Below, in pieces: positions 6,347 through 34,501 of a stretch of DNA of 64,000 bases; positions within the stretch are counted from its first letter, which is position 1, and the number at the start of each line of letters is the position of its first letter. This stretch comes from Escherichia phage fp01. The notes beneath the pieces are model-generated. The model worked only from the letters and a program-made list of their open reading frames with translations, was not told where the DNA came from and ran no database searches. The stretch lies in sequence record NC_048731.1. One strand, 5' to 3'. Position numbers and translations under genes: made by a program.

Positions 6347-7051
6347 ATGGCTGGTTCTCGTAGAAAGAAACATATCCATGAAATCCCTGATGAAGTCTTT
6401 AAAAAGGTTATAGAGCATCTGGGGAACGGTGGTACTAAGAAAGCAGCATGTGAAATGCTCGGCGTATCATCTAATCCAACTATGGAAAGGATGATTGAAG
6501 AATGGCAAGACCGCCAGATTCAAGTTGCCGAAATGAAGAAAAAGAAACGTGGCACACTTATTGAAGGCATCGAGCTAGCTAACGTTATTGAGCAGTATTT
6601 GTCTGGTGATTCTTTTGAAGAGATTGCCGATCGTAATTATCGCTCTGTAGCAATGGTTAAATCTGTTCTGGAACGATATGGTGCTCTACTTCGTTTGAAC
6701 GATATTGTAGATCCATTGAATCCTCCGATTATTCCTGATGATGCTGTAGCAGAAGAATTTGCAGTTGGTGAGCTTGTTTGGGTTCCTGGATACCAGTGTA
6801 TCGGTGAAATCAAAAAAGCAATGGATAATCCTGTTGGTTGCTACCGTGTATGGCTTCTATCAGAAGGCAAACAACAGAACGTCCATTATATGAATTACGA
6901 GCTGGCCTCTGTTAAACATCTGGAAAAGCTAGGGGTTGACGTAAAGTCTCTGGGATATAAATGGACTCGTGAAGAAATTATTACGTTGATTAACGAAGCT
7001 GTTAAGGCTGCCCTGAAACTTGATAAAGAAAAAGGAAAACGCCGTGAGTAA
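6347..7051 (+). CDS. hypothetical early protein with HTH-like segments, possible regulator
   Basis: Starts 16 nt after the PN25-like leader RBS; HTH-like stretches GTKKAACEMLGVSSNPTMERMI and FEEIADRNYRSVAMVKSVLER. Confidence 0.5.
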   Translation: MAGSRRKKHIHEIPDEVFKKVIEHLGNGGTKKAACEMLGVSSNPTMERMIEEWQDRQIQVAEMKKKKRGTLIEGIELANVIEQYLSGDSFEEIADRNYRSVAMVKSVLERYGALLRLNDIVDPLNPPIIPDDAVAEEFAVGELVWVPGYQCIGEIKKAMDNPVGCYRVWLLSEGKQQNVHYMNYELASVKHLEKLGVDVKSLGYKWTREEIITLINEAVKAALKLDKEKGKRRE

Positions 7052-7295
7052 GCTAACTGATTTGCTTAAAGATGGGGAAGTAAAAACTCTGTACCGTAGA
7101 AGCTGGGATAATGATAATAATGGCTTAGTATTACTAACTCTAGATGCTGATTTGGATGTAGTTACCCAACATACCTGGGTAGCTGGTAACTATCCGTATA
7201 GCGAGGTTGTAGCATTAACAGTATGCGAAGCTATTGCGGACGATTGGGAGGTTTCCAGCATCGATGATATGCTCGCTGTTGGCCTAGTGGAGTAA
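7047..7295 (+). CDS. hypothetical protein
   Basis: ORF overlapping previous stop (GTGA); probable GTG start after purine-rich tract; acidic small protein. Confidence 0.4.
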   Translation, partial: SKLTDLLKDGEVKTLYRRSWDNDNNGLVLLTLDADLDVVTQHTWVAGNYPYSEVVALTVCEAIADDWEVSSIDDMLAVGLVE

Positions 7296-7304
7296 CTACT
7301 GAAA

Positions 7305-7345
7305 AATTTCAGTTGCTTAATCCTATAATTCTTGATATAATATTC
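7305..7345 (+). promoter_or_regulatory. T5-type early promoter
   Basis: -35 TTGCTT (7313-7318), 17-nt spacer, -10 TATAAT (7336-7341), AT-rich upstream. Confidence 0.55.
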
Positions 7346-7398
7346 TCATAGTTTGAAAGAACTATTCTGTTTAATTCTTAATTAAGGAAATATAAAAT

Positions 7399-7809
7399 AT
7401 GACTACTCCAACTCAGTGGACTGATGAACTGTTCGAAAAAATGTCTTCCGAATACGTTGCTCGTATGGAGCAATTCCCAGAGGATGAACGTCCGGGTGTT
7501 AGCATGGAAATTGTTAGCGAAATTGCCCAAGAAAATGGTGTAACTCCGAACGGTTTTCGTATGAAGCTGACTAAAGCAGGTTTGTATATCAAGAAAGCTG
7601 CTGGCTCTGCTTCTAAATCTAGCGCATCTACAGGAGAAAAAGCTTCTGGTGGTTCTCGTACTTCCAAAGCCCAAGCTCATGCCGACCTTCGTTCAGCATT
7701 CTCTGATGCTGGCCTAGCACCAGATTTTCTGGATGATGCAATTATCGACAAACTGACCGGTAAAGCGGCTGCTCATCTGGCAGAAGCAATCCGAGCTATC
7801 ACTAAGTAA
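7399..7809 (+). CDS. hypothetical protein, likely abundantly expressed
   Basis: Good RBS (AAGGAAAT), strong bias to CTG/CGT/GCT codons unlike neighbours; Ala/Ser/Lys-rich central linker. Confidence 0.55.
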   Translation: MTTPTQWTDELFEKMSSEYVARMEQFPEDERPGVSMEIVSEIAQENGVTPNGFRMKLTKAGLYIKKAAGSASKSSASTGEKASGGSRTSKAQAHADLRSAFSDAGLAPDFLDDAIIDKLTGKAAAHLAEAIRAITK

Positions 7810-7823
7810 TAAGGAGATTATAC

Positions 7824-8114
7824 ATGAACAAGCAAGAAATTATCTCCGCATGTGAAGCTCATAACGAGTTCTATCTTCATTACGAGAAATTACGCCAAAA
7901 AGGTACTACGTACCTTCAAGGTACTATGGATTTTTCTGATAAGTACCTTAGTAAACGATTTGCCCAGGAGCGTATTCGTCAACCAAAAGACGACGAGATT
8001 CTAGTATTTAGTCGTACTAATGATAGCTTCCGTTTTATTCCTGTAAATAAGGTGAAACGTATTACTTCATTGTCTAGTGAACTCGATAGAGCTACGCCAG
8101 TAGGCAAAAAATAA
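7824..8114 (+). CDS. hypothetical protein
   Basis: RBS AAGGAGA 7 nt upstream; 96 aa; followed by a terminator. Confidence 0.45.
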   Translation: MNKQEIISACEAHNEFYLHYEKLRQKGTTYLQGTMDFSDKYLSKRFAQERIRQPKDDEILVFSRTNDSFRFIPVNKVKRITSLSSELDRATPVGKK

Positions 8115-8120
8115 TAAAGA

Positions 8121-8150
8121 AAAGGAGAGCTTCGGCTCTCCTTTGTTGTA
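8121..8150 (+). terminator. rho-independent terminator
   Basis: aaaggagagc-ttcg-gctctccttt perfect stem followed by TTGTTGTAT. Confidence 0.6.
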
Positions 8151-8161
8151 TATGGGTTATA

Positions 8162-8827
8162 GTGAAAAAGTTAACAGCAAAGCAAATAAATAAAGAATTA
8201 GAGCCGCGAGGTTTTAGTATAGTAAGTGAGTGGATTAATATAAGGACACCCGCCATATTTAAGTGCTCAAAAGGTCACCAATGGAGGGCATACCTAAACA
8301 ACATAAGAAAAGGTAGTGGTTGTCCACACTGTAGTAATAAAGCTAAGCTTACTATAGAGCAAATAAATCAACAATTAGCCAATAGAGGTATAAAACTTGT
8401 ATCCACGTATATCAATGCCCATAGTCAAGCAGTATTCGAGTGCGAAGAAGGACATAGGTGGACTAGTAGCGTGGATAAGATTAAAAATGCAGGAAGATCT
8501 TGTCCTATCTGTATAGCTACAAGCTATTTGTATATATTTTATAGCCAGCAGCTTGGAACAAAAATAGGAACATCTAAAAGTCCAGAGAGAAGACTTTTAG
8601 AGATCAAAAAAGATTCTAATCTAGAGGACTTGAGTGCATATGGAGTATACTCTTGTGAGGGGTCAGCATATAATCTAGAAAATAAAGCACATAGATTCTT
8701 TAGTGCTACACAGATATTTACAGAATCAATATTTGACGGTTCTACTGAGTTTTTCAATATTCAACCAGAGGAGGCAGAGGAATATCTCCTAAGTCAGGGA
8801 GCAATAAAATGTCAGGAGATAATGTAA
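8162..8827 (+). CDS. putative homing-endonuclease-like protein (duplicated Cys4 zinc ribbons plus GIY-YIG/T5orf172-like segment)
   Basis: Two repeated modules C-x-x-GH-x-W...C-P-x-C; downstream YLYIFYSQ...TKIGTS resembles the GIY-YIG/T5orf172 nuclease core; AT-rich codon usage unlike flanking genes; GTG start. Confidence 0.4.
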   Translation: MKKLTAKQINKELEPRGFSIVSEWINIRTPAIFKCSKGHQWRAYLNNIRKGSGCPHCSNKAKLTIEQINQQLANRGIKLVSTYINAHSQAVFECEEGHRWTSSVDKIKNAGRSCPICIATSYLYIFYSQQLGTKIGTSKSPERRLLEIKKDSNLEDLSAYGVYSCEGSAYNLENKAHRFFSATQIFTESIFDGSTEFFNIQPEEAEEYLLSQGAIKCQEIM

Positions 8828-9120
8828 ATCAGGATTATGTTGGACATGTAGATGATCAGTCCATAGTTATCTGGGAAAGAGAAGATGGCCAACAGGTTAG
8901 GCTAACTGTATCTGAGTTTAGGGGGAATCTATACTTAGGAATTAGGTACTGGCTCCAAGATATAGAAGGTGAATGGTTTCCAACAAAAAGTGGATTCAGT
9001 ATGCCCTACACTCTAGAAACAACATCTCATTTATTTAAGGCATTTACTAAAATATTATCTAATAGTGAGGTTTTATTAGAAGTAGAAAAAGAAGCTAAAC
9101 GCCTGGCGGAAAAAGAATAA
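8809..9120 (+). CDS. hypothetical protein
   Basis: 103-aa ORF overlapping upstream gene end; AT-rich codon usage shared with 8162-8827. Confidence 0.35.
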   Translation: MSGDNVNQDYVGHVDDQSIVIWEREDGQQVRLTVSEFRGNLYLGIRYWLQDIEGEWFPTKSGFSMPYTLETTSHLFKAFTKILSNSEVLLEVEKEAKRLAEKE

Positions 9121-9124
9121 ATGT

Positions 9125-9160
9125 ATTTGCTTTCAACTCAGTTTTGTTATATAATATTTA
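9125..9160 (+). promoter_or_regulatory. T5-type early promoter
   Basis: -35 TTGCTT (9127-9132), 17-nt spacer, -10 TATAAT (9150-9155), then ATAAATTGATGAGAG leader. Confidence 0.6.
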
Positions 9161-9186
9161 TATAAATTGATGAGAGATACAAATAA

Positions 9187-10158
9187 ATGACTAATGTAAA
9201 AGACTTTATTAAACGTTGTCAAGAAGCATATTACCAGGGAATGTCTTTAATCTCTGACGAAGAATATGATCGTCTGATTAAAAGATTTCCGTTAGAAGAA
9301 GAGATCGGGCCTAAGGGTGATATTCCACATCTGTATCGTATGTATTCTTTACAGAAAGTTTATTATAATCGTGGAGATAAACCCCCATTTAACCCGTTAG
9401 GTCAGGTAGAAACTGATAAGTTAGATGGTTGTGCGATTTCTCTGTTATATATTAATGGCGAATTTGTTCAAGCACTAACTCGTGGCAATGGTATTCTAGG
9501 GAATGATGTCACAAGCAACGTAAGATTGCTGAACATCCCCAAAAAGATTTCCCAAAAAGTACCTACTCAAATCACTGGTGAAGTTCTAATTACAAAAGAA
9601 GTAGAAAATAAACGTAACTTTGCCTCTGGTGCTATTAACCTCAAAGATAGCGATGATTTCGTACAACGTATCGGAGAAGGTGGTTTAATCTTCGTTGCAT
9701 ATGGTATCCAGTGTTCTGCTGAATCTGTAGGTATTACAGAAACGTATTTAAAAGATATGCTTTGGCTAGAGAATGAGAACTTCTTAACAGTTGTTAATGT
9801 GCGTTCCTTCTTTAAATGGATTCCGACGGATGGTAAAGTTGTTCGTATTAATGACAACAACAAATTCTTCCGAGAAGGCTGGACTAATAAATTCCCTCGT
9901 GGAGCATTCGCTATTAAAGAGGATGAAGAAGGCGAGATTACAACTCTTACTAAAGTTGAATGGCAGGTAGGGGCTTCTGGTAAAGTAACTCCAGTTGGTT
10001 ATTTCGAACCGGTAATTATTGATGATGCTACAATTGTTAAGGCGACTCTTAATAACGTTGATTATATTAACTCTCTTGATCTAGAGATCGGTTGCCAGAT
10101 TCGAGTGATTCGTGCCGGTGGTGTAATCCCGTGCATAGTAGAGCGAGTATACGATTAA
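9187..10158 (+). CDS. ligA: NAD-dependent DNA ligase, N-terminal subunit (domain Ia, adenylation, OB fold)
   Basis: Domain Ia-like SDEEYDRLIKRF, adenylation lysine motif KLDGCA, TRGNG motif; ends before the Zn-finger region. Confidence 0.8.
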   Translation: MTNVKDFIKRCQEAYYQGMSLISDEEYDRLIKRFPLEEEIGPKGDIPHLYRMYSLQKVYYNRGDKPPFNPLGQVETDKLDGCAISLLYINGEFVQALTRGNGILGNDVTSNVRLLNIPKKISQKVPTQITGEVLITKEVENKRNFASGAINLKDSDDFVQRIGEGGLIFVAYGIQCSAESVGITETYLKDMLWLENENFLTVVNVRSFFKWIPTDGKVVRINDNNKFFREGWTNKFPRGAFAIKEDEEGEITTLTKVEWQVGASGKVTPVGYFEPVIIDDATIVKATLNNVDYINSLDLEIGCQIRVIRAGGVIPCIVERVYD

Positions 10159-10208
10159 TACATAACCCTTTGCTACCCATCCACCATATCGGAATTATAA
10201 AGTGGTTA

Positions 10209-10237
10209 TTGACATTTTCGCCGCTTAGGTATATACT
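10209..10237 (+). promoter_or_regulatory. near-consensus sigma70 promoter inside the ligase spacer
   Basis: TTGACA (10209-10214), 17-nt spacer, TATACT (10232-10237). Confidence 0.5.
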
Positions 10238-10299
10238 ATTATCATTCAGTTGAGGGATAGAAAGTTATGGCGAGGGTAAGCAAAGTTAGTTAAAATTGT

Positions 10300-10335
10300 A
10301 GTTGCTAAATGCTTAAATACTTGCTATAATATTTA
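10300..10335 (+). promoter_or_regulatory. T5-type early promoter
   Basis: -35 TTGCTA (10302-10307), 17-nt spacer, extended -10 TGCTATAAT (10322-10330), then ATAAATTGATAAGGAAG leader. Confidence 0.6.
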
Positions 10336-10357
10336 TATAAATTGATAAGGAAGAAAT

Positions 10358-11140
10358 TTGATGAAAATCGAAATTCCAACACAATGTCCCTCTTGTGGTT
10401 CTAAGCTAGATCTTGTCAACGGACAATTATTCTGTCGGAATAAGTCCAACTGTCCAGCGCAATCAAGTAAGTTAATTGAGAACTTCTGTACAAAAATGAA
10501 GTTAAAGGGCTTTGGCCCAAAAACTATTGAGAAGCTGGAGCTGACGAAGATTTCAGAACTATTTTACCTAACCGAAGAAGATTTGGTTAGAGCCGTGGGT
10601 AGCAAGGTTGCCGCTAAGTTAATTAGCGAATTAAATACTAAAGTTCGCGGAGACATTGACTTTGGTTCAGTTCTCGGTTCTTTAGGAATCCCTCTAATAG
10701 GAGAGGTTGCAGCAAAGAAATTATCCCAAAATTGCACTAGCTTCCACGATGTGAAGGCTGACGGCAAGGCTGGAGAAAATTATAAAGCCTGGCTAAATTC
10801 CCCACAAGGCAGGGATGTTATCGAACTACCGTGGAAATTTTCAACCGGTATTAAGGGCACTAAAGCTAATATCATCATTACAGATGAATTAGTTGCCCAG
10901 CCAAATGGAATCGCGGTATGTATTACCGGATCTTTGCAAGATTTTGCAAATAGAACGGATGCAACAAACTATTTAGAAGGTCTAGGATATACGGTTAAGA
11001 AATCCGTTACCAAAGACGTCAAATACCTGATCTGTGAGGATGAATCAAAACGTTCTTCCTCATCTTATAAGAAAGCCGAAACGAATGGGATAGAAATCCT
11101 GTCGATTAAAGAACTATTGGAGAAAAATAATAATGTCTAA
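10358..11140 (+). CDS. ligB: NAD-dependent DNA ligase, C-terminal subunit (Zn finger, HhH, BRCT)
   Basis: Starts with Cys4 Zn finger CPSCGSKL...CRNKSNCPAQ, then Gly-rich HhH-like segments and BRCT-like C-terminus. Confidence 0.8.
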   Translation: MMKIEIPTQCPSCGSKLDLVNGQLFCRNKSNCPAQSSKLIENFCTKMKLKGFGPKTIEKLELTKISELFYLTEEDLVRAVGSKVAAKLISELNTKVRGDIDFGSVLGSLGIPLIGEVAAKKLSQNCTSFHDVKADGKAGENYKAWLNSPQGRDVIELPWKFSTGIKGTKANIIITDELVAQPNGIAVCITGSLQDFANRTDATNYLEGLGYTVKKSVTKDVKYLICEDESKRSSSSYKKAETNGIEILSIKELLEKNNNV

Positions 11141-24741: not shown

Positions 24742-24780
24742 AACCCCAGAGGGATATCCCTCTGGGGTTTTCTTTTATTG
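24742..24780. terminator. bidirectional terminator between convergent early and late blocks
   Basis: aaccccagaggg-atat-ccctctggggtt flanked by A-rich tract on one side and T-rich on the other. Confidence 0.6.
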
Positions 24781-26904
24781 AGGTACTATCTGTACCTTTA
24801 ATTGCTTGAGTTCTTCTTCTAAGTCTTCAATCCTTTTAATAAGATCTTGAACAACATGCATAGTATCAAGAAGCATTGGAGTTGTATCAAGTTCTTTTTG
24901 TTCCTGTTCTGCCCCATTGTTATCATAGAATTTTCTAGTTTTAACATAAAGCGGTTCTATAACTTCTGTTTCCTGAGCGATAACACCTCGTCTTATACGT
25001 TGAAGATTATCGTTATTATATATGAATGTCACAAAGTTTAGATTTTTGATGTTTTCTAAAGCTTTTTCAACAGTTGTATTTTCTATAGAATGTTTAAGGC
25101 GCCTATCTGAAGTTGCATTCTTTTGTAAAGTGTATGTTTCTTCTGATCCTGGTTGCCATTTGTGGAAAAAAATATCGGAATTTAATGGTTGAATACCGAC
25201 ACGAACTCCATAAGCGTTATTAGCATCGCCAGCAATATGCCATACGGATTGTGCAAAAGATGTTCCGTTGTGATGAATCATCCCCCAGTGACACGAAGTC
25301 TTATAACCACCTTGACTAGATTGGGCACCACTAAGAAGACTATTAAAAGCGTAATTTGCTCCAATAGCCTGGTCTTCCGCGCTAAATGTACCTTTAGTAA
25401 AACCTGTTTCACTCCAAGCCATCATAGTCCCATATCTTGCTCTATATCGATCGCTACTCAGCGTACCTGTGTCATCAAAGGCAAGGTCTTTTGTCACCCC
25501 TTTTGTCTTGTTGTATACAGACAGAATCGCATAATAAAGGCCATCCATGTATGCATCGCATCGCAATCCTGCATCCGCTTCAACAACGGTGCCGATTTTG
25601 TATTGGGCCTTTACCTGTCCTGACAATGCCTTTACGCCAGAGCCTGGGCGGACAGCATCAGCATTCATTACACTCCAAGACGTATTCGCGGCAACAAAGC
25701 CACCAGAGGCACGAATCACCCAAACGCCGACAAAGTTGCGCGGAACGATTTCTGCTGCTGAACGACCATAAACAGGACTGCAGCGAGAAGCGTCAAAGTT
25801 GGTTTGTATGTACCTTGAACCAGAGCCAACCGCAGCAGGAGCGTCCCCCGAAGTTATCGACTGAAAAGCACCGTTAGTTGCCACTTGGCTTGCTAAAGAA
25901 GCCAATGTCACCATTGTGTGCGGCGCTGCGTAAGTTATATTTGGAGCGCCTGATTCAGACACAACCCCGTTGGACGATGAATTCCCGCCGTCACCCCTGC
26001 CAAATAAGGCCTGTATGGAACCAGTTTGAACACCGTTCCTGTCAGGCACTCGAAACGTTGTTGTTCCGTTACCCAAAGAATATTTACCACGCTTTGATGC
26101 GTCAGCAAGCCATTCCGCATCTGAAATCGGCGTAAGCATTTGCGCATATGCCCAAAGCTCAGGCCAGTCAGCCCTGTTAAGAAGCTGCCCATCAGAAACC
26201 ACCTCATACGGTTGAATATACGCACGGCTATCTCGAAGATGGAAATCACCGACACCGTAGTTCATCACGCCATTCATTGTGGGTCCTACTGTGCCAGTAT
26301 TAATTTTGTTCTCCACCCAACGCTTAGTTACAGCATCATAATCATTAACGGGGTCTCCCGCAAGGGGGGTAGATCCAATAGGACGAACATTTAACCACGC
26401 AGCTGCGCGATCTGCTAAATCTGATAAATTATTTTCAGTCAATAGGCTTTCGTCTTTTGTTGGCACATTATAACTTTGTCTAAAAGCTTCTTTTGATACT
26501 ACTCCAGTACCCCCTTGTTCTATAGAAAGTGCAGTGGTTAAACCTGTTAAAGATTTAATAGTTGAGTTGGCACCATCCATGTCTATACTAGCAAATCTTG
26601 ACCATGCAGTCCATGAACTGTAAAAAGATCTACTATATATCTCATTACTATTATAAGGTAAGTAAATTTGAGTACAAGAAGTTGCTAAATTGCTTGCATT
26701 ATTTTTTAAAACTAGTAATGTACCTGCAGCCGCAACAGGATAGTTAAGAGAAGTAGGAGAGTTAGCATTTTCAGATTGCCAATACTTTCCATACACACTC
26801 CCATCAAGTGTATTTAAATTTGTTCCTGTAGTAATTAAACCATATACAGGTAAAGCGGCTACATCAGTAGCCTTTAAGTTAATTTTATCAATTCTAAGAG
26901 CCAT
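24775..26904 (-). CDS. tail fibre distal subunit (LtfB-like) with C-terminal intramolecular chaperone domain
   Basis: RBS AAGGAG; C-terminal SDRRLKHSIE...coiled-coil matches the self-cleaving S74-type chaperone domain of phage fibres; GC-rich internal segment. Confidence 0.7.
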   Translation of the reverse strand: MALRIDKINLKATDVAALPVYGLITTGTNLNTLDGSVYGKYWQSENANSPTSLNYPVAAAGTLLVLKNNASNLATSCTQIYLPYNSNEIYSRSFYSSWTAWSRFASIDMDGANSTIKSLTGLTTALSIEQGGTGVVSKEAFRQSYNVPTKDESLLTENNLSDLADRAAAWLNVRPIGSTPLAGDPVNDYDAVTKRWVENKINTGTVGPTMNGVMNYGVGDFHLRDSRAYIQPYEVVSDGQLLNRADWPELWAYAQMLTPISDAEWLADASKRGKYSLGNGTTTFRVPDRNGVQTGSIQALFGRGDGGNSSSNGVVSESGAPNITYAAPHTMVTLASLASQVATNGAFQSITSGDAPAAVGSGSRYIQTNFDASRCSPVYGRSAAEIVPRNFVGVWVIRASGGFVAANTSWSVMNADAVRPGSGVKALSGQVKAQYKIGTVVEADAGLRCDAYMDGLYYAILSVYNKTKGVTKDLAFDDTGTLSSDRYRARYGTMMAWSETGFTKGTFSAEDQAIGANYAFNSLLSGAQSSQGGYKTSCHWGMIHHNGTSFAQSVWHIAGDANNAYGVRVGIQPLNSDIFFHKWQPGSEETYTLQKNATSDRRLKHSIENTTVEKALENIKNLNFVTFIYNNDNLQRIRRGVIAQETEVIEPLYVKTRKFYDNNGAEQEQKELDTTPMLLDTMHVVQDLIKRIEDLEEELKQLKVQIVPQ

Positions 26905-26913
26905 TTTAACTCC

Positions 26914-27219
26914 TTATGCCCACATGCGAACAGGTGTTTCTGGGTTTACTATAAATTTATCTAGTATAGAGAGATCAAAATCATCAATATTCATAATACG
27001 CAGATTAACGTGATATCCTTCTTGCACTACATACTCAATATCTTCTATATTTTGATACTCTGTTAAGGGTTTTGCAGGCTGACTGATAATACCGATAAAA
27101 TCAATACTGACATTTTCACAATATAAACTACCTGTTTCTTCATCTAAACTAAAGCCAAATTTTATCAAATTAATTTTCATTTCATCAGCATTAGTAAATT
27201 TTAGATATAAATCTTTCAT
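26914..27219 (-). CDS. hypothetical protein between the two tail-fibre genes
   Basis: 101-aa acidic ORF with RBS AAGGA. Confidence 0.35.
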   Translation of the reverse strand: MKDLYLKFTNADEMKINLIKFGFSLDEETGSLYCENVSIDFIGIISQPAKPLTEYQNIEDIEYVVQEGYHVNLRIMNIDDFDLSILDKFIVNPETPVRMWA

Positions 27220-27265: not shown

Positions 27266-29169
27266 TTACCGTAAGCCATTAATTTGATCATTATTTAAAG
27301 CCCTATACCATACTCGGAAATTCTTAATATGATATACAAATTTAGAAGGGGTAGGAGATGGTGATGCACCTAACCTAGACGGAATACCTGTCAAACTCAC
27401 GGGAGTACTAGTAGATTTAGCAGTTTTACCATTAAAGAAATTACTAATCTCATTCCCTGTTATTTTTTGAGCATAGGTCATAGGAGGTAGACTTTCTATA
27501 TCTGGAATAGCTAAGGTTGGCCCTGTACTAGATCTATATGTTCTTATAGTGGCATTATCAGCGCTATCACAGCGGCAGATAATGTCATACTTAGAACCTC
27601 TTACTTGCATAACTTCTACATAACTAGTATAAGGTCGTACTTTACAATTAAATTCAAAAGATACTGTGCGCTCAAAGTAGTCCGCCAGGGTTCTATAGCC
27701 GGCATTATCTGGTATACACCACCATTCATCTGCTGTTCTAGTAGTGGTGGTATCAGTGCTATTACGGATGTAAGAAGTTGGAGCTATGCCTTCCTCAACC
27801 TGTATACCCCAAATGTAGAAACCAGAAACACCATCCCCCTGGTAGACAGTAGTATTGGTATTTTTAGCCATCTGGAGTCTAAATATAGTGCTTCGACTTT
27901 CAGTGGCTGCAAAAGAAACCCAAATTCTATATATACCTCCAGTTAATCTCTCATACCCCCCTCTAATATTACTAGCAGAACCACTTGTAGCAACAGTTTC
28001 ATTTTTAATATCAAAAAACATACCAACAGTTGTACCGGAAGCTACACGTAGATATACTAAACGGTTAGCGGTATCATCTTTAACATAAGCAGAATAGCAA
28101 TAAAAAGTATCAGCAGTCAAAGATATCCATTTATCGTTGCAGTAATGCTCGCCGTCATTGGTATTCTCGGTAAACTTAGTCATCAACATTTCGCCAGTCG
28201 GGCACGCCGAAGCATTAGGAGTTGTAATAACTAGACTACCTCCAGTAATTGCTTCTGAATTAGTATATAAATTAGTGCACTGAGACTCCATTAATAAACC
28301 TTGCTTTTCAAATCTAGGTTCATTAATATCTGCAAAACACATTTTACCACTTTTATCTATATAACTGGCGGTAGTTGAGCGAGTAAAATTTGCAGATTTT
28401 GTTGGCAATTCCAGAGTTACATCATTAATTGTTGCTAAATCGTAGGGGGCCATACCAGATAATAATCTCATATCATCAGTTAAAGGTACCCAAACATCCG
28501 GATAAGGGACAGGTTCATACATAATAATACTAGCAGCAGAAGCAGCGGCGGCAGCTTCAGAAGCTTTAGCATTAATTTCAGAAGCTTTAGCGTTAGTCTC
28601 TGAAGCTTTAGCATTAGTCTCAGAAGNNNNNNNNNNNNNNNNNNNNNNNNNNNNNNNNNNNNNNNNNTTTTACTTGCTAATGCATTAGTTTCGCTAGTAG
28701 CAGCATTAGTTTCCGAGGTTTTAGCTTTGGTTTCACTAGATTTTGCATTAGTTTCTGATGCTTTTGCATTAGTCTCGGATGTTTTAGCCTTAGTTTCACT
28801 AGCTTTCGCATTAGTCTCAGATACTTTAGCTGCTGCGGCTGATGCTGCAGATCTATCCGCTGATGCAGCAGATTGAGTAGCAGATGTAGCGGACTGAGTG
28901 GCAGAGGCTTCAGAAGCTCCAGCAGAAATAGCAGCTTCCTGTTCAGAATCCTTAGCATTAAGTTCTGAAGTCTTAGCAGCTATCTCAGAAGCTTTTGCAG
29001 CTGCAGCAGATTTAGCCGTAGCCTCAATAGAGGATACTAATTCACTTGCAGTAATAGAGCTAATAGAATTACCTAGAGTTACAGTATATCTAGGAAATTT
29101 ACTAGCAGTAGCTTTAGTATCATCAATATTTAATATCTGTTGTACAATAATCTTAGTAGTTACTGCCAT
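27266..29169 (-). CDS. L-shaped tail fibre proximal subunit (pb1 N-terminal/LtfA-like), interrupted by an assembly gap
   Basis: The 418-aa and 229-aa track ORFs are the same reading frame on either side of the N-run; SETNAKA-type repeats continue in frame; N-terminus matches the T5 fibre N-terminus as recalled. Confidence 0.6.
28540..28860 (-). repeat. in-frame tandem 21-nt coding repeats (heptapeptide A-K-A/T-S-E-T-N array)
   Basis: Repeated gcattagtctc(a/t)ga(a/t)gctttagc units on both sides of the gap. Confidence 0.8.
28627..28667. other. assembly gap (41 N)
   Basis: Run of n characters inside a tandem coding repeat. Confidence 0.95.
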
Positions 29170-29591
29170 TATTTAGTTACCCCATCACTGATAAATACTT
29201 TACCCTCCATTATGCGAAAGGAGCTAATTGCAGATCCTACAACATCTCTAGTCATGATTATATCATAGTATCCTGCTAATCGCTGACGGGGGTTATACTT
29301 ATCTCTATCTTTAGATGCTTTAGCTCCTAGATTTTCCACGGATTCTACTGGCAAACTTATAGCCACAGCCCCCTGGGCAGCATCAATAATATTAGTAGTA
29401 AAGGATGCTAGGGTTTCTGCGTTCTCTTCTAGACTACTTTTTATAACACCTCTTAGAGAATACCCCGTTAAATTAACAGGGGTATTTGTAGGTGGGTAAG
29501 TACTATCATCAACATCTAAGAACTGCATCATTAAACCATATGGTACTTTCTCATCTATTACTAAGTCTATAACTCTATTTTCAGTACTCAT
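29169..29591 (-). CDS. tail collar protein (p132-like)
   Basis: 140 aa, directly downstream of baseplate genes and upstream of the fibre gene. Confidence 0.45.
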
Positions 29592-29594
29592 TAT

Positions 29595-31667
29595 TTACCT
29601 TATATGGATGTACCCGTTTTGCAGGTCTATCTTCATTCTGTAATAGGCTTCCGGGTTGGAGGATAGTGCTGCTGCACGATCATATATAATATTTACACCG
29701 ATTTGGGATAGGAAAGCATTACCAGCAACTATTTTACTAGCAGTTACAGTACCATTAACTATCATATCACCGTGTAAGACCATAGCAGGGCTAACCCATG
29801 CCGAGCCATTCCATTGTCTAGTAAATGCTGTTTGCGGAGCATTACTATTAAACTCAGTTAATACATCGTATTTAACAGGCGGGGAACCAAAATTACTTTG
29901 GAAGAAGGAGTTAGCACGACTATCGTCCCATCCTCCTAATCCGGCCACTCCAAGAGAATACATGCCCGGACCTCTCTGGCCATCCGCACCAATAGTACCT
30001 TCAGTACCACTCCACTGAACAACATCCGCCCAACTAGTACCTTCCAATAATTTATTTGTAACAGGGTCTAGAGTACCAGTTGTAGCATAAATATTCTGAG
30101 TCATATCAGTACGGTTAGGTGGTGTTTTAGACCATCCAGGAGGCGGATAATCTTGCTCCAATGGTTTTGCTGGCAAACTTTTACCAAGTTTATAAACAAA
30201 TACTGTTTGTTTACCCTGCATCCCAGTACCAATATCTACGTCTCCATTAGGAGTACCAATAACAACTCCACTAGAAATACGAAGAGTATCGCCATCATAG
30301 CGTATCCACTGAGTAGCATTACCTATATCTAACTTTGGCTTAGCAGAAGTGTTATCCATTCCCATCCAGATACCAGATTTTGTATCTCCCCAAGTTTTAC
30401 CTTGAGTATAGATTGCCGGGTTATCTTGGCCAGTTAGATTAGTCATTACAAAGTTAGCAGCATTGATAGTTTTAGTTATAATACTACCATCAACGTTAAC
30501 TATCTTTTTAATAGGGTCGAAAGATATTGGTGCTTTTCCTTCTGCATCTAGGAGGCCTATATTAATAGCACCAGTAGCAGCATCGATTAAAAATGTTTGC
30601 TTCCACGTGGAGCCATCTTTGATCTTACCTTTAATATACGCATAGTTTACTTCTATACCAGTTTCATTAACAAAGCTATTATCAAGATGGGTGTCCTCAT
30701 TTAGTATAAAAGTCTGTACTGCAGAATCTGTAACATCTTGAGCATTTGGCCCCCACGCTATAGAGGAGACCTTAAATTTATGCTCAATTTTCCACGGAAA
30801 CGATATAATAGTTGCCGCTTGTGCAGCACCTACGTTAATTTTTTGGGCCTTAGTCCATCCAGTTCTTGCAAATTCTGTGGAATCTATATAAGAAACGACA
30901 AATTCCCGAACATTGGCTCCAGATCCCCTATTCCACTCCCACTGTACACGAAGGTCATATCTCTCTTTACCATCTGCAATTCTTGCAGCCTTGAAGGTAA
31001 TATTGCTAGGAGCAGTGGGCGGTACAAAGTTATACTCTACAGTAAGAACTTTAGAAAATTCAAAGTATCCAGAGGAGTCTACCGTTACACCATCAGGCAT
31101 AGTAACTTGCCCTGATATGCGTACTTTATAATCACCAATAGGGACACCACCAAATCTAATAGTGGGGGATAACGGACCTACATAATATTTTACCCACGTA
31201 CTATTTGAAGGTTGAGTACTTTTTAACTCAATAGTACAGTAGCTTGCTTCACCAGTTGTTTCTACGACAACTATCGGTGCACCTACCCCAACATCCACAG
31301 GTTCTGATTCAGATCTTGCTGCAACAATTGTTGGCTTCTCTTTTGTCCTAAAGTTAGTCTCATTAGAGAGATTGATACCAATCTTAGCCTCTAACAGTTC
31401 AGAATCAATAATAGAGTCGTAAAAAGCCCCTTGAATCTCATAAGAGGTTGAAGGGGTCAGATTATTAATCATTACGAAGAAAGTATCTATACCAGTATAA
31501 TCACGTCTATCTATACTTTCTCCTGTCTTTAACCAAAAAGATCTGCCAATAACGTCATAGTCAGTATATATAGAATGCTGGACATATGCCATTGTATATC
31601 CAGTCATTATACTATTTAAGACCATTTTGGCTGGTGCATTATTCGAAATCATTAAATGGATGCCCAC
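29595..31667 (-). CDS. baseplate / central fibre protein (pb4-like)
   Basis: 690 aa; position between baseplate hub and collar; Gly-rich beta-structure signature. Confidence 0.55.
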   Translation of the reverse strand: MGIHLMISNNAPAKMVLNSIMTGYTMAYVQHSIYTDYDVIGRSFWLKTGESIDRRDYTGIDTFFVMINNLTPSTSYEIQGAFYDSIIDSELLEAKIGINLSNETNFRTKEKPTIVAARSESEPVDVGVGAPIVVVETTGEASYCTIELKSTQPSNSTWVKYYVGPLSPTIRFGGVPIGDYKVRISGQVTMPDGVTVDSSGYFEFSKVLTVEYNFVPPTAPSNITFKAARIADGKERYDLRVQWEWNRGSGANVREFVVSYIDSTEFARTGWTKAQKINVGAAQAATIISFPWKIEHKFKVSSIAWGPNAQDVTDSAVQTFILNEDTHLDNSFVNETGIEVNYAYIKGKIKDGSTWKQTFLIDAATGAINIGLLDAEGKAPISFDPIKKIVNVDGSIITKTINAANFVMTNLTGQDNPAIYTQGKTWGDTKSGIWMGMDNTSAKPKLDIGNATQWIRYDGDTLRISSGVVIGTPNGDVDIGTGMQGKQTVFVYKLGKSLPAKPLEQDYPPPGWSKTPPNRTDMTQNIYATTGTLDPVTNKLLEGTSWADVVQWSGTEGTIGADGQRGPGMYSLGVAGLGGWDDSRANSFFQSNFGSPPVKYDVLTEFNSNAPQTAFTRQWNGSAWVSPAMVLHGDMIVNGTVTASKIVAGNAFLSQIGVNIIYDRAAALSSNPEAYYRMKIDLQNGYIHIR

Positions 31668-34501
31668 TCCACAGACTGTTCTCCATCATCTCCTTCCGCT
31701 CTAATACGAAAATATAGTTTTCTATTGATTCCTAGAGCATCACTATTATGAAGAGCAAAATCTGCCTTATTATACATTAATAAATAGTCATAAGTATACT
31801 GATTTTCAATACGTACACTTCTTAGCATTCTATTCTGGGAATCATAGATTTCCAGAGTATAGAATATACTTTCTATTATATCTTCTTCTGGTATCCTATC
31901 CCAAGCTAGTTTTACATCTGGGCCTACAAATTCAGTTACATCCCCAGAAGCCGTATTAGTTACCCTAAAATTAGATACTACGCTTAGGTTTTTAGCAGAG
32001 TTAAGTTCTATAGATAATGTTACTGGAGAACTTCTCCTACCATTTATATCCACAGCCCTTATTTCAAATATTGCTAAACCTGCAGGCTCTCCAATTATCT
32101 CTTGGATCATGCGTTCATTGGGATTTGTTTCTAGTTGCTGCACAATATAAGGCTCAGCATGACCGGAATGCACGATAGAGTAATAAACTACGTTATTAGT
32201 TAAACTTGGAAGCCAGGATAACTCACCATTTTTTCCTATGGAACCAACTAAACCACCAGGTGTAGGAGTATATTTAAAATCTCTAGGAGGAAGAACATTG
32301 TTACTAATATCTGGTATATCATTACCACTATTATCTACTTGATCAGAGTTGATAAATACATCTTCCCCATACTCCTGTAGAGTAACATTTATCTTTCCTT
32401 CCCTAGAGTTTTCGACTTCATCTACTAAAAAGTACTTCTTATCCCATCCGTAACGGTCGTATGTAAATGCAATAGCATCATTAGGCTCAATACCAATGAA
32501 TTGATATGGTAAAGAAAATGAGAGGGTTCTAGAATACCTAGATTTCTTAAGTTCTCTGTCTGCAAAACTTCTAGCAGTATAGTAGTTAGTTATATTTGCA
32601 AAAGATAATTGTAATTTTTTGTCTAAATTTTTATCTTGCTCTTTATATCTAGAGTTATAAAAGGTAATAGAGTTAGTTTTCCAGCTAAGAGCTGGGTCTA
32701 CGATAGATGCTTGAACTGAGTTGAATTTATTTCTACCAGTAGTATCTGATAGCTCTAAATCACCATAAGTATCCAGAAAATTAATTTCTAATGGAGTATT
32801 AGAATATTTTTCTACAGTAATCCTATATTGACCCGATAAGTTGTTAATAGCCCCACCGTAGGATTCTAGTAAACCTTGAACATTTTTAAATACTGATTCA
32901 GATGTATCTAGAATAGTATTCATTTGTACTATTTGTCTATTTTCTGCTAATGGATCAGTCCACCCAACATATCTCCAGTATGGCTGCCAGGATACTTGGT
33001 AGGATTCATCTATAATATCTAGGATAGCAGCTTCTTGTACCAATTGTTGGAGAGGGAACTGATCAATAGCAATGTTTGCACCATACCTATCTGAAGTTAA
33101 GTAGTCAAGTGTTTGCCAAATACCATTTAAACTAGTACTATTAGCAGTTACTCTACCATCAGAATGGTAGATTTTTATCTTCTTACCCTGAATCTCAGCA
33201 CTAACTTCTGGAATCTCAGTTCTATTTTCATTAATAGTAAAGCGTACTACCGCGTATGCAGTATCTAATAGTTTATATCTAGCATCCCAGTACTCAGGCC
33301 CATTACCGTTCATACTTTGGAGATAGAACCCACGCTCCTTCGCTATATTTACTAATACTTCAGAAGCCGTTTGATCAGCTTTTCCATGATAAGTCCAAAT
33401 CCTTATATCACCATTACCATCGTTATATTTATATTCCTGGCCATGCACAGAAGGACTACTAGAAGACATTCCTGATGCTATTCTCTGCATGGTGTCTCCT
33501 GCTACTTTTTTAACACCGAAACAGGTTCTAGCAGAGCTATCATTAGAGTCCATACAAATCATAGGGTTATCCCCGAAGGAAAAGTCAAGAAAACCGTCTA
33601 TCTCTCCTTCAGCAAAAGCATATACTACGTAAACTATATTAGGATTGTGTAATTCCGTATCCGCAAAAATAGGTATTCCCGGTATTTTCTGTACACCATA
33701 AACTACTGGTATATACTTAGCAGCAAGGTTAAAATCTATATCTACTTCTTTAGTAACAGTCTCATAATACTTTTTAAGACTATAACTTCTAGATAGTCCA
33801 AATAGCTTTTTCTTAGACTTTAGCTTGTATCTTTCTTCCTGTACCTGATACTTTGCTAGAATAGAGATACTTTTATTGGCGTGAAAGAAACCGTAGTCTT
33901 CTTGGTACTCAAGTCTTTTAGCCCCATTAGATGGAAGTAATTGTCCTGCTACAACTTCAAGCCCTCTATGAGAAGCATCATCAGTAAATCTACCATTAAC
34001 CCTATCAAAATCATAGAATTGGTTAGAACAATTCCAAGTAATTGTGGAGGTTCCAACTCCCGAAGTACTAATATTATCCTTAATACCTCCACCAGTAATT
34101 CTACCTCTAAAGTATAATAAAGGCCCATTTGTGTCTGGGTCTACAGGTAAAATAGAACCATCCTCTGTAATAATTGCTTGATGAATTGATACTAGTCTAT
34201 CTAAAAAGGACACACCATTCTGCACTAATTTCAGTACTTCATCCTGCGCTGTACCTGTAATAGTAAAAGATAGGCTGCCAATAGATAAATCTCTATTTTG
34301 TTTATGTGTGCTAATAGACTTAACTTTACCGGCCTGGTACAGAATACCGTTATATAGTACATCTCTAAAATAGTCAGTTAAGTAAATAAAAGCAGTACTA
34401 GTACCAGTAGAGCCGGGTAATTCTAGAGAAATTAGACTAGCAGTTTTTATTCTGCTATTATTTTTTAAGTAGTTTCTAGCACTATCTAATATTTTTTTCA
34501 T
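31652..34501 (-). CDS. baseplate hub protein (pb3-like)
   Basis: 949 aa immediately downstream of the distal tail protein gene. Confidence 0.6.
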   Translation of the reverse strand: MKKILDSARNYLKNNSRIKTASLISLELPGSTGTSTAFIYLTDYFRDVLYNGILYQAGKVKSISTHKQNRDLSIGSLSFTITGTAQDEVLKLVQNGVSFLDRLVSIHQAIITEDGSILPVDPDTNGPLLYFRGRITGGGIKDNISTSGVGTSTITWNCSNQFYDFDRVNGRFTDDASHRGLEVVAGQLLPSNGAKRLEYQEDYGFFHANKSISILAKYQVQEERYKLKSKKKLFGLSRSYSLKKYYETVTKEVDIDFNLAAKYIPVVYGVQKIPGIPIFADTELHNPNIVYVVYAFAEGEIDGFLDFSFGDNPMICMDSNDSSARTCFGVKKVAGDTMQRIASGMSSSSPSVHGQEYKYNDGNGDIRIWTYHGKADQTASEVLVNIAKERGFYLQSMNGNGPEYWDARYKLLDTAYAVVRFTINENRTEIPEVSAEIQGKKIKIYHSDGRVTANSTSLNGIWQTLDYLTSDRYGANIAIDQFPLQQLVQEAAILDIIDESYQVSWQPYWRYVGWTDPLAENRQIVQMNTILDTSESVFKNVQGLLESYGGAINNLSGQYRITVEKYSNTPLEINFLDTYGDLELSDTTGRNKFNSVQASIVDPALSWKTNSITFYNSRYKEQDKNLDKKLQLSFANITNYYTARSFADRELKKSRYSRTLSFSLPYQFIGIEPNDAIAFTYDRYGWDKKYFLVDEVENSREGKINVTLQEYGEDVFINSDQVDNSGNDIPDISNNVLPPRDFKYTPTPGGLVGSIGKNGELSWLPSLTNNVVYYSIVHSGHAEPYIVQQLETNPNERMIQEIIGEPAGLAIFEIRAVDINGRRSSPVTLSIELNSAKNLSVVSNFRVTNTASGDVTEFVGPDVKLAWDRIPEEDIIESIFYTLEIYDSQNRMLRSVRIENQYTYDYLLMYNKADFALHNSDALGINRKLYFRIRAEGDDGEQSVEWASI

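Follow-up and report, generated by a model that had tools for sequence, protein, structure and literature searches.

The window analyzed here, 64,000 nt of the genome of Escherichia phage fp01 (NC_048731.1), contains a single run of Ns, 41 N at 28627–28667, and the question that this locus raises is whether the two ORFs flanking the run, 27266–28522 and 28480–29169, both on the minus strand, are separate genes or the halves of one, and what length of DNA is missing between them. An initial annotation, whose span of 27266–29169 corresponds precisely to these two ORFs, had proposed that the run interrupts a 21-nt tandem repeat encoding A-K-A/T-S-E-T-N units within one tail-fiber gene. We conclude, with a probability of about 0.88, that the Ns mark a gap left by scaffolding in the published fp01 genome, cutting one lateral (L-shaped) tail-fiber gene of the LtfA/pb1 type (27266–29169, minus strand) within the repetitive DNA that codes for its shaft.

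Tandem Repeats Finder detected a period-21 array abutting the gap (28557–28626, 3.3 copies, 87% matches, score 112) and, on the opposite side, a period-21 array at 28682–28819 (6.6 copies) and a period-63 array at 28703–28827 (2.0 copies of 63 nt, 83% matches, score 180). Base identity at a lag of 21 nt was 0.65–0.77 in the sequence adjoining the gap, compared with a mean of 0.39–0.43 and never more than 0.62 in 2000 codon shuffles, while at lags of 20 and 22 nt it was 0.21–0.32. Translation of the minus strand gives the heptads SETNAKA, SETKAKT, SETNAAT and SETNALA; the initially proposed units are these SETNAKA-type heptads in another phase, and the location of the run within a 21-nt tandem repeat was confirmed. 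The Ns replace sequence that is continuous in relatives, where 33 or 327 nt occupy this position, and the edges of the gap coincide with repeated DNA. Masking by the data provider was ruled out as the source of the Ns: the deposited fp01 protein, a "hypothetical protein" to which the 418-aa ORF is 100% identical, is already the truncated ORF, and the Ns therefore belong to the deposited record. Other ORFs in the array, in another frame or on the opposite strand (28898–29176, plus; 28677–28958, minus), were rejected as by-products of repeat composition. No tRNA genes were found in the window.

Close homologs of the fp01 protein, 11 of 11, are encoded by single ORFs of 519–729 aa, which comprise a collar anchor, a heptad shaft and a 417-aa C-terminal domain. 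They have the same N-terminus as the fp01 protein and are 87–97% identical to it in the C-terminal domain; one of them, from IME178 (729 aa), is annotated as a "tail fiber protein". Because all of them are single ORFs, with which both halves of the fp01 locus are colinear, we regard 28480–29169 and 27266–28522 as one gene. In addition, phrog_1419 spans both halves in colinear order, and the downstream frame is open right from the gap edge (SETNAKA SETNAKA SEINAKA...). This evidence upholds the earlier proposal that the same gene lies on both sides of the gap, with one correction: as deposited, the two sides do not share a frame. The length of 41 nt is not divisible by 3, so that the upstream ORF reads on past the Ns in a meaningless frame (...LLRLMLKLQRL...), and the halves share one frame only after the arbitrary N count gives way to the real length.

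The identity of the gene as a tail fiber was borne out by its N-terminus and its position. Using the IME178 ortholog as the query, residues 1–219 match DT57C LtfA (PDB 8hqz chain d; E 7.8e-38), and the N-terminus encoded in the window differs from that of IME178 by a few residues. The fiber ATG (29169–29167) overlaps the stop codon of ltfC/p132 (TAATG), the collar gene that immediately precedes it and encodes the anchor of the fiber (29169–29591, minus strand; PF23926 LtfC, E 3.5e-13; phrog_34807, collar tail protein). A pb4-like gene (29595–31667) and a pb3-like gene (31652–34501) are also present, placing the fiber gene within the pb3–pb4 tail-tip module. On its other side, a conserved 101-aa ORF (26914–27219, minus strand; phrog_18574/1361, unknown function), found at the equivalent position in IME178, HMD-P3 and three metagenome contigs, separates it from a second fiber gene of 709 aa (24775–26904, minus strand). 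Residues 151–490 of the 709-aa protein match residues 528–876 of DT57C LtfA (E 8.1e-149), and its C-terminus is a Peptidase_S74 intramolecular chaperone (PF13884, E 3.6e-12).

A gap of 41 nt is incompatible with both the reading frame and the heptad register. The true missing length must be 12 + 21m nt, and the full product is predicted to have 624 + 7m aa. The relatives have either 33 nt (631-aa form) or 327 nt (729-aa form) between the same flanks, and the full product is most likely 729 or 631 aa. Should the 41 N be a paired-read distance estimate, 33 nt is closer to it than 327 nt.

The loss of about 327 nt, which gives a 729-aa protein with 38 heptads, is the most likely case. A 729-aa relative (L005) contains a 70-nt exact repeat with a spacing of 294 nt; the upstream flank in the window stops 18 nt into copy 1 of this repeat, the downstream flank starts 19 nt short of the end of copy 2, and the flank contexts match the two copies at 56/63 and 62/63 positions. 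With the long allele, contig ends predicted for word sizes of 21–33 fall no more than 11 nt from both observed edges. In an array of the 631-aa type, no word of at least 17 nt recurs. The value of about 327 nt is thus favored because the edges lie in a duplicated 70-nt element and the short allele is devoid of repeated words that would break an assembly. No single k gives both edges exactly (491/1362 for k = 21 and 501–503/1372–1374 for k = 31–33, against the observed 502/1361), and the word-size argument is therefore only approximate.

The smaller gap, in which fp01 has the short allele of P0002 and P0009 and lacks only 33 nt (NAAAASQTAAKT), resulting in 631 aa with 24 heptads, is possible but not probable. 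The closest C-terminal domain is that of the 631-aa P0002 (97% identity), whose DNA is 93 and 97% identical to the upstream and downstream flanks, respectively; 33 is the permitted value nearest to 41 N, and the 631-aa form is identical in two independent metagenome assemblies. However, this allele offers no cause for a break at ~2300x coverage. The heptads that flank the gap (SETNAKS upstream; SETNAKA SETNAKA SEINAKA downstream) are also closer to those of the 729-aa P0006 than to those of P0002, and over the first 110 nt past the gap the identity is 97.3% to P0006 against 92.7% to P0002.

fp01 is a Tequintavirus, the nearest genomes being those of the Tequintaviruses IME178 and HMD-P3 (~94% nucleotide identity). 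According to the fp01 paper, MiSeq reads were assembled de novo with CLC and completed with the CLC finishing module, and the repeats of the shaft very probably defeated this short-read assembly. The paper also gives MinION reads with a mean length of 7.5 kb at about 19x. At the same array, the HMD-P3 record contains an Illumina adapter plus NN, and it is an independent assembly failure at this site. An unlikely variant, compatible with the main explanation, is that several repeat-number variants coexisted in the fp01 stock that was sequenced and that a bubble in the assembly graph, and not the length of the repeats alone, made the break. Close relatives differ by 7–30 heptads, direct repeats of 21–294 nt are substrates for slippage and recombination, and the DT57C authors observed an extra copy of another tandem motif in an ltf mutant and considered this locus a potential hot spot for mutations; the repeats by themselves, however, suffice to explain the break.

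The repeat number, which the initial annotation had supposed may vary between phage stocks, is variable among homologs: 8, 24, 29, 31 or 38 heptads were counted per homolog, and the differences were always whole heptads. The region ahead of YEPVPYPD has 312, 263, 249, 214 or 102 aa, the variants differing by 7, 9, 14 or 30 heptads, and the unit number thus changes with preservation of the frame between alleles that are 87–97% identical in the C-terminal domain. Some short variants, for example the 519/520-aa forms derived from automated short-read assemblies, may be assembly collapses. Units of 21 nt and super-units of 63, 105, 147 and 294 nt, gained or lost through homology, would alter the shaft by whole heptads, each of which would add ~1 nm. 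Any such event, be it biological or computational, by its nature leaves the 21-nt phase intact, and whole-heptad differences are therefore no proof of selection. It is conceivable, if rather doubtful, that the array is a fast-evolving, register-preserving switch of fiber length, in which recombination between the 21–294-nt repeats produces shafts of ~9–40 nm within populations, the fp01 stock itself being mixed, and in which length tunes the reach of a lectin-like tip through O-antigen or capsule and contributes to the reported Escherichia–Salmonella polyvalence of fp01. A literature search linking the heptad, repeat number and tail fiber found no paper.

The first part of the protein is the segment inserted into the LtfC collar (residues 1–39; 29053–29169, minus strand). 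In the IME178 ortholog, residues 1–100 were near-identical to DT57C LtfA (8hqz_d), whose N-terminal segment, lodged in the LtfC ring, folds into two short beta-strands and a "lasso", and whose helix, beginning at T40, enters a three-helix coiled coil (PMC10713586). By homology to this cryo-EM structure, residues 1–39 of the fp01 protein would be clamped in the dodecameric LtfC collar, and from about residue 40 three chains would run away from the tail tip as a parallel alpha-helical coiled coil. A low-confidence model places strands at residues 5–9 and 28–32. The start of the predicted alpha-helical shaft (residues 40–167; 28668–29052, minus strand) ends with ...SETNALA SK plus 1 nt at the gap edge. 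Heptads with Ser at position 1 and Ala at position 5 are unbroken from residue 47 (29031), and strict SETNAKA-type units extend from about 28821 to the gap edge. Beyond the gap, after the last 2 nt of the split codon, follow the last five shaft heptads (SETNAKA SETNAKA SEINAKA SEAAAAA SAASIIM; 28520–28626, minus strand). With the 167-aa N-terminal half as the query, a search of 5.8 billion proteins was overwhelmed by words of low complexity and yielded only 10 fragments.

Among 299 heptads, Ser occupied position 1 in ~100% and Ala position 5 in 85%, with no break in register. This pattern suggests that the Ser1-x-x-x-Ala5-x-x array extends the coiled coil without a register break up to the 417-aa tandem lectin-like domain. 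Judged by its sequence, the array is consistent with a three-helix coiled coil, a structure known by experiment only over the first helical residues of DT57C LtfA. It is very improbable that this Ala/Ser/Thr-rich array forms no coiled coil and is either a flexible linker of low complexity or a different fibrous fold. The core residues (Ala, Ser) would indeed be unusually small, neither the repeat nor the anchor is covered by a Pfam model, and confidence over the array is low in the full-length AF2 monomer, which has a helix over residues 41–207 and a mean pLDDT of 35.6, a poor value for which it was used for secondary structure only. Nevertheless, the helix seen as a three-helix coiled coil in the DT57C cryo-EM structure is prolonged by the array without a shift of register, the invariant positions of the array are spaced 4 and 3 residues apart in an a/d signature, and the region of lambda Stf with AAKTSETNA motifs falls in the part modeled as the proximal coiled-coil domain.

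The last shaft heptad ends in a Met codon (28522–28520), at which the annotated 418-aa ORF spuriously begins; Ile or Thr is encoded here in 10 of the 11 homologs, and the ATG is therefore an internal codon and no true start. That the gap hides a stop or frameshift between two real genes, one for a short anchor/coiled-coil protein and one for a separate 418-aa protein, is scarcely credible: the 418-aa ORF stands alone in the fp01 record and HMD-P3 has two annotated CDSs, but the HMD-P3 split is due to the adapter and NN inside the array, every intact homolog is a single ORF with Ile or Thr at this Met in all but one, and from the gap edge onward fp01 has an open frame that keeps the heptad register.

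The remainder of the lateral fiber gene encodes a 417-aa all-beta domain (YEPVPYPD...NGLR) followed by the stop codon (27266–28519, minus strand). It was modeled by AF2 with a pLDDT of 88.8 as a tandem LamG/concanavalin-A-like jelly-roll pair; Foldseek matched it to the baseplate-fiber proteins of phages Pa193 and E217 and to laminin LG4-5 pairs, and there was a weak Laminin_G_3 match. Residues 77–264 of the 418-aa ORF (27731–28294, minus strand) are a GTA head-spike-fiber domain (NF048003, 112 bits against a cut-off of 36), and the IME178 ortholog matched Rcc01080 (PDB 6tb9; E 4.8e-20). Given that the RcGTA head spike fiber binds capsular polysaccharide, the fold and this homology point to a presumed polysaccharide-binding tip, which would bind surface polysaccharide in a reversible first adsorption. 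The domain could instead, or additionally, be the docking site of the second fiber protein. A scan of IMG/VR for the C-terminal domain found nothing.

A sequencing artifact in a known kind of gene is an ordinary finding, and its main value is one of curation: the fp01 genome is called complete, while its lateral tail-fiber gene is broken and the record lists only a 418-aa "hypothetical protein" for the downstream half. In T5-like phages, adsorption to O-antigen-bearing hosts is decided by the lateral fibers, and the missing gene therefore matters for explaining the polyvalence of fp01. The fp01 paper analyzes host range via the receptor-binding protein, and the words "tail fiber" and "L-shaped" are absent from it; three uses of "gap" in it refer to genome comparisons and not to the N-run. 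Since the array also broke the HMD-P3 record, the fiber shafts of T5-like phages are a predictable weak point of short-read assembly, and repeat counts that derive from them call for caution. The length polymorphism in whole heptads, unsurprising for coiled-coil fibers, is a natural series for testing shaft length against adsorption.

Among known systems, lambda Stf has the same AAKTSETNA-type Ala/Ser/Thr-rich motifs, with a weak local match (E 1e-4), in a region modeled as a coiled coil in Ur-lambda, whereas its anchor domain (gpStfN) and tip differ. The similarity is confined to low-complexity repeats and therefore does not establish common ancestry. Rcc01080 of RcGTA has a homologous lectin-like beta-sandwich domain; in contrast to it, the fp01 domain ends a siphovirus tail fiber rather than being located at a capsid vertex, and is followed by a second LamG-like domain.

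T5 pb1 and DT57C LtfA are alike in several respects: there is near-identity in the collar-binding segment and where the helix begins, the gene likewise lies directly after ltfC/p132, pb4 and pb3, the proximal shaft likewise consists of Ala/Ser-rich heptads, and DT57C also has a second fiber gene downstream. The distal part differs, being in fp01 a tandem LamG-like GTA-spike-fiber domain and not the pb1 bullet domain or the distal region of DT57C LtfA (528–876), which in fp01 is found in the separate downstream 709-aa gene. A Pfam search did not detect in the gap-split gene the Peptidase_S74 chaperone (PF13884) present in pb1, DT57C LtfA and LtfB; this chaperone defines the distal module only, and the assignment of the anchor to the pb1/LtfA family therefore stands. 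The ortholog IME178 QYC97257.1 (729 aa), which also has metagenomic orthologs, shares with the fp01 protein 95% identity in the C-terminal domain, the N-terminus, the heptad register and the gene neighbors, and the IME178 gene is intact, with 327 nt where fp01 has 41 N.

The window contains a single N-run, exactly 41 N long (28627-28667), with period-21 tandem repeats on both sides: one array touches the gap (28557-28626, 3.3 copies, 87% matches), and on the other side lie a second array (28682-28819, 6.6 copies) and a 63-nt super-unit (28703-28827, 2.0 copies). The 21-nt periodicity is real, since base identity at lag 21 in the gap flanks (0.65-0.77, compared with 0.21-0.32 at lags 20 and 22) exceeded that of all 2000 codon-preserving shuffles (mean 0.39-0.43, maximum at most 0.62). 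Minus-strand translation gives the units SETNAKA, SETKAKT, SETNAAT and SETNALA. The initial annotation had described an N-run interrupting a 21-nt tandem repeat of A-K-A/T-S-E-T-N units, and both statements are borne out, the SETNAKA-type heptapeptide being the other phase of those units; the span it gave, 27266-29169, is precisely that of the two gap-flanking ORFs (28480-29169 and 27266-28522, minus strand). Two further ORFs of 92-93 aa lie within the repeat region, one in another minus-strand frame (28677-28958) and one on the plus strand (28898-29176); they have no support as genes and were rejected as read-throughs that are rich in Leu/Lys or in Ala because of the repeat composition.

As deposited, the two halves do not share a frame, 41 not being divisible by 3, and the upstream ORF runs through the Ns into nonsense. 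The downstream frame, terminated by the stop codon at 27266-27268, is open right from the gap edge (SETNAKA SETNAKA SEINAKA SEAAAAA SAASIIM-YEPVPYPD...). Eleven homologues were collected from NCBI genomes, from metagenomes in ENA and from Logan assemblies, among them the annotated 729-aa tail fiber protein of phage IME178. Every one of them is one uninterrupted ORF (519-729 aa) in which the shared N-terminus leads through a heptad array into the shared 417-aa C-terminal domain, the latter 87-97% identical to that of fp01. The start Met codon of the annotated downstream ORF (28522) corresponds to Ile in seven of them and Thr in three, and both halves align colinearly with the PHROG family phrog_1419. 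Taken together, these results establish that the gene is single and the N count arbitrary; the earlier claim that one gene occupies both sides of the gap stands, while its claim of a shared reading frame does not hold for the deposited 41 N.

The upstream flank ends in ...SETNALA SK plus one base (A), and the downstream flank starts with two bases (CT) followed by SETNAKA. Frame and heptad register together demand a missing stretch of 5+7m codons, or 12+21m nt (12, 33, 54 ... 327), which does not allow 41 nt. At this position, relatives carry either 33 nt (NAAAASQTAAKT, 631 aa) or 327 nt (729 aa). The locus of one 729-aa relative, L005, holds a 70-nt exact direct repeat whose copies are 294 nt apart; our upstream flank breaks off 18 nt into copy 1 (context match 56/63), and the downstream flank begins 19 nt before the end of copy 2 (62/63). 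We joined the window flanks to each candidate middle and compared repeated words. With 327 nt, unique-word contig ends are predicted at 491-503 and 1362-1374 nt (word sizes 21-33), and the observed values are 502 and 1361. The repeat edges and the word comparison favor the long allele, and we put the probability that about 327 nt are missing, which would give 729 aa and 38 heptads, at roughly 60%. A missing stretch of only 33 nt, giving 631 aa, appears less likely: the 41 N would favor it if they represent a paired-read distance estimate, but the joined sequence contains no repeated word of 17 nt or longer, so that a de Bruijn assembler would have had no reason to stop. A mixed stock is possible with either the long or the short allele. 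The only relative annotated with two CDSs ('tail protein' and 'tail fiber protein'), HMD-P3, is not evidence for two separate genes, because its array is interrupted by AGATCGGAAGAGCGTCGTGTAGGGAAAGAGTGT...GTAGATCTCGGTGGTCGCCGTATCATT, the Illumina TruSeq adapter, and then NN (PQ462667.1, L002 locus 5690-5760, minus strand), a second, independent assembly failure at the array. HMD-P3 was deposited as a 'complete genome' despite the adapter sequence within its fiber gene.

The Ns belong to the deposited fp01 record, since the 418-aa ORF (27266-28522) is 100% identical to a deposited fp01 'hypothetical protein'. According to the genome paper, the genome was published as a 'complete genome' (MH745368.2, 109,515 bp), assembled de novo from MiSeq reads with CLC Genomics Workbench and its genome finishing module with ~19x MinION support, and host range was examined via the receptor-binding protein (PMC9961651). 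Neither 'tail fiber' nor 'L-shaped' occurs in that paper, and the three uses of 'gap' shown by a search of it all concern genome comparisons, none the 41-N run (PMC9961651). Within the phage collection, two Tequintaviruses, IME178 and HMD-P3, come closest (~94% nucleotide identity). The feature is an artefact of assembly, and the gene it affects belongs to a well-known family; the break matters in practice for the fp01 record and for any explanation of fp01 host range.

The initial annotation suggested that the repeat number may vary between phage stocks; among relatives, it does vary. The region N-terminal of YEPVPYPD, where the C-terminal domain starts, comprises 312, 263, 249, 214 or 102 aa, with 38, 31, 29, 24 or 8 heptads from about residue 47, and the differences are all whole heptads (7, 9, 14 or 30), a regularity that homology-driven events would preserve in phage or assembler alike. 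The 680-aa form equals the 729-aa form less one seven-heptad block (147 nt), and the IME178 array has super-units of 63, 105 and 147 nt besides the 21-nt unit. Two metagenome assemblies, independent of each other and built with different assemblers, encode the 631-aa protein identically. Other Tequintavirus fibers, for example those of YJin-2024a, EC148, EC122 and bastian (9-21 strict units), share the first heptads and differ beyond them. Two near-identical alleles from Logan assemblies, P0004 (519 aa) and P0005 (520 aa), keep only 8 heptads and have different in-register deletion junctions (SAA|DALA and SELNAK|T SETNAKA); they stem from automated short-read assemblies and are either real short-shaft mutants or collapsed assemblies. 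With the short forms and phase-keeping as caveats, whole-heptad length polymorphism among relatives is real and is the expected behavior of a repeat-encoded coiled coil. In the database records of phages bastian (L009, MT074459.1, Salmonella phage, locus 4670-4709 and 4946-5010), bux and polluks, the orthologous gene carries 'repeat_region' features annotated by the depositors, so the repetitiveness of the shaft had already been noticed there.

The gene is the lateral (L-shaped) tail fiber of a T5-like phage, as indicated by its upstream neighbors and its N-terminus. In the sequence TAATG, its ATG (29169-29167) shares bases with the stop codon of the gene just upstream, which encodes the LtfC/p132 collar protein (PF23926, E 3.5e-13), and pb4-like and pb3-like genes lie farther upstream. 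Residues 1-219 of the IME178 orthologue match DT57C LtfA (PDB 8hqz chain d, E 7.8e-38), the first 100 being near-identical, and this anchor was found in 523 records of the phage collection. By cryo-EM, DT57C LtfA starts with two short beta-strands, followed from T40 by a long helix that forms a three-helix coiled coil pointing radially outward (PMC10713586). At the pb4/pb3 region, where fp01 and HMD-P3 each have one 690-aa and one 949-aa gene, the IME178 record lists a series of short CDSs that overlap and are named 'tail fiber protein' (L001, MZ398246.1, locus 6883-10687; e.g., 6883-7905, 7871-8941 and 8941-9462), a pattern that suggests frameshift errors in the IME178 record.

Written in sevens from their C-terminal end (299 heptads), the 11 homologous shafts keep one register without a break between about residue 47 and the globular domain. 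Ser occupies position 1 in ~100% of the heptads, and at position 5, 85% have Ala and 11% Ser, whereas positions 2 (E/A/K), 3 (T/A/N), 4 (N/A), 6 (K/A/L) and 7 (A/T) vary. A pair of invariant small residues with 4- and 3-residue spacing is the hallmark of the a/d core of a coiled coil. Given this spacing, and because the array runs on in register with the DT57C helix of known structure, we infer that it would form a trimeric coiled-coil shaft. The rise of a coiled coil is ~0.15 nm per residue, so each heptad would add ~1 nm. The full-length AF2 monomer model places strands at residues 5-9 and 28-32, with a helix at 41-207, but carries little weight at a mean pLDDT of only 35.6. Lambda Stf residues 205-286, with AAKTSETNA motifs, match weakly (E 1e-4) and fall within the proximal coiled-coil domain (102-393) modelled in the Ur-lambda study.

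The AF2 model of the 417-aa domain is all-beta and confident (pLDDT 88.8, pTM 0.86). Foldseek against the PDB returned baseplate/tail-fiber proteins of Pseudomonas phages Pa193 (9b45) and E217 (8env) first and laminin LG4-5 pairs and neurexin next, by which the modelled fold is a tandem LamG/concanavalin-A-like jelly-roll pair. Sequence searches identified the NCBIfam GTA head-spike-fiber domain at residues 77-264 of the 418-aa ORF (112 bits, cut-off 36), and the IME178 orthologue matched RcGTA Rcc01080 (6tb9, E 4.8e-20), which binds capsular polysaccharide (PMC10218006); by homology, the fp01 domain may bind polysaccharide. Homologues of ~555 aa covering the whole domain (33-50% identity, most 45-50%) are common in Leclercia chromosomes (P0013-P0073, from Leclercia and related Enterobacteriaceae, named 'phage head spike fiber domain-containing protein'); they are presumably prophage or tailocin fibers with a different N-terminal anchor.

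Downstream lies a second fiber gene (24775-26904, minus, 709 aa) with a Peptidase_S74 chaperone, and between the two is a 101-aa ORF (26914-27219, minus) that is conserved, in this position, in IME178, HMD-P3 and three metagenome contigs. The 101-aa ORF has no matches other than PHROGs without an assigned function (phrog_18574, phrog_1361) and is a candidate fiber chaperone or adaptor. Residues 151-490 of the second fiber match the distal part of DT57C LtfA (528-876, E 8.1e-149); the fp01 fiber locus is therefore a mosaic with parts of LtfA distributed over two genes. Attachment of the second fiber could involve the lectin-like domain of the first or the 101-aa protein. This two-gene split recalls DT57C, whose branched fibers consist of two proteins (PMC4728585). 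Unlike DT57C LtfA and T5 pb1, which have a Peptidase_S74 chaperone, the gap-split fiber gene of fp01 has none.
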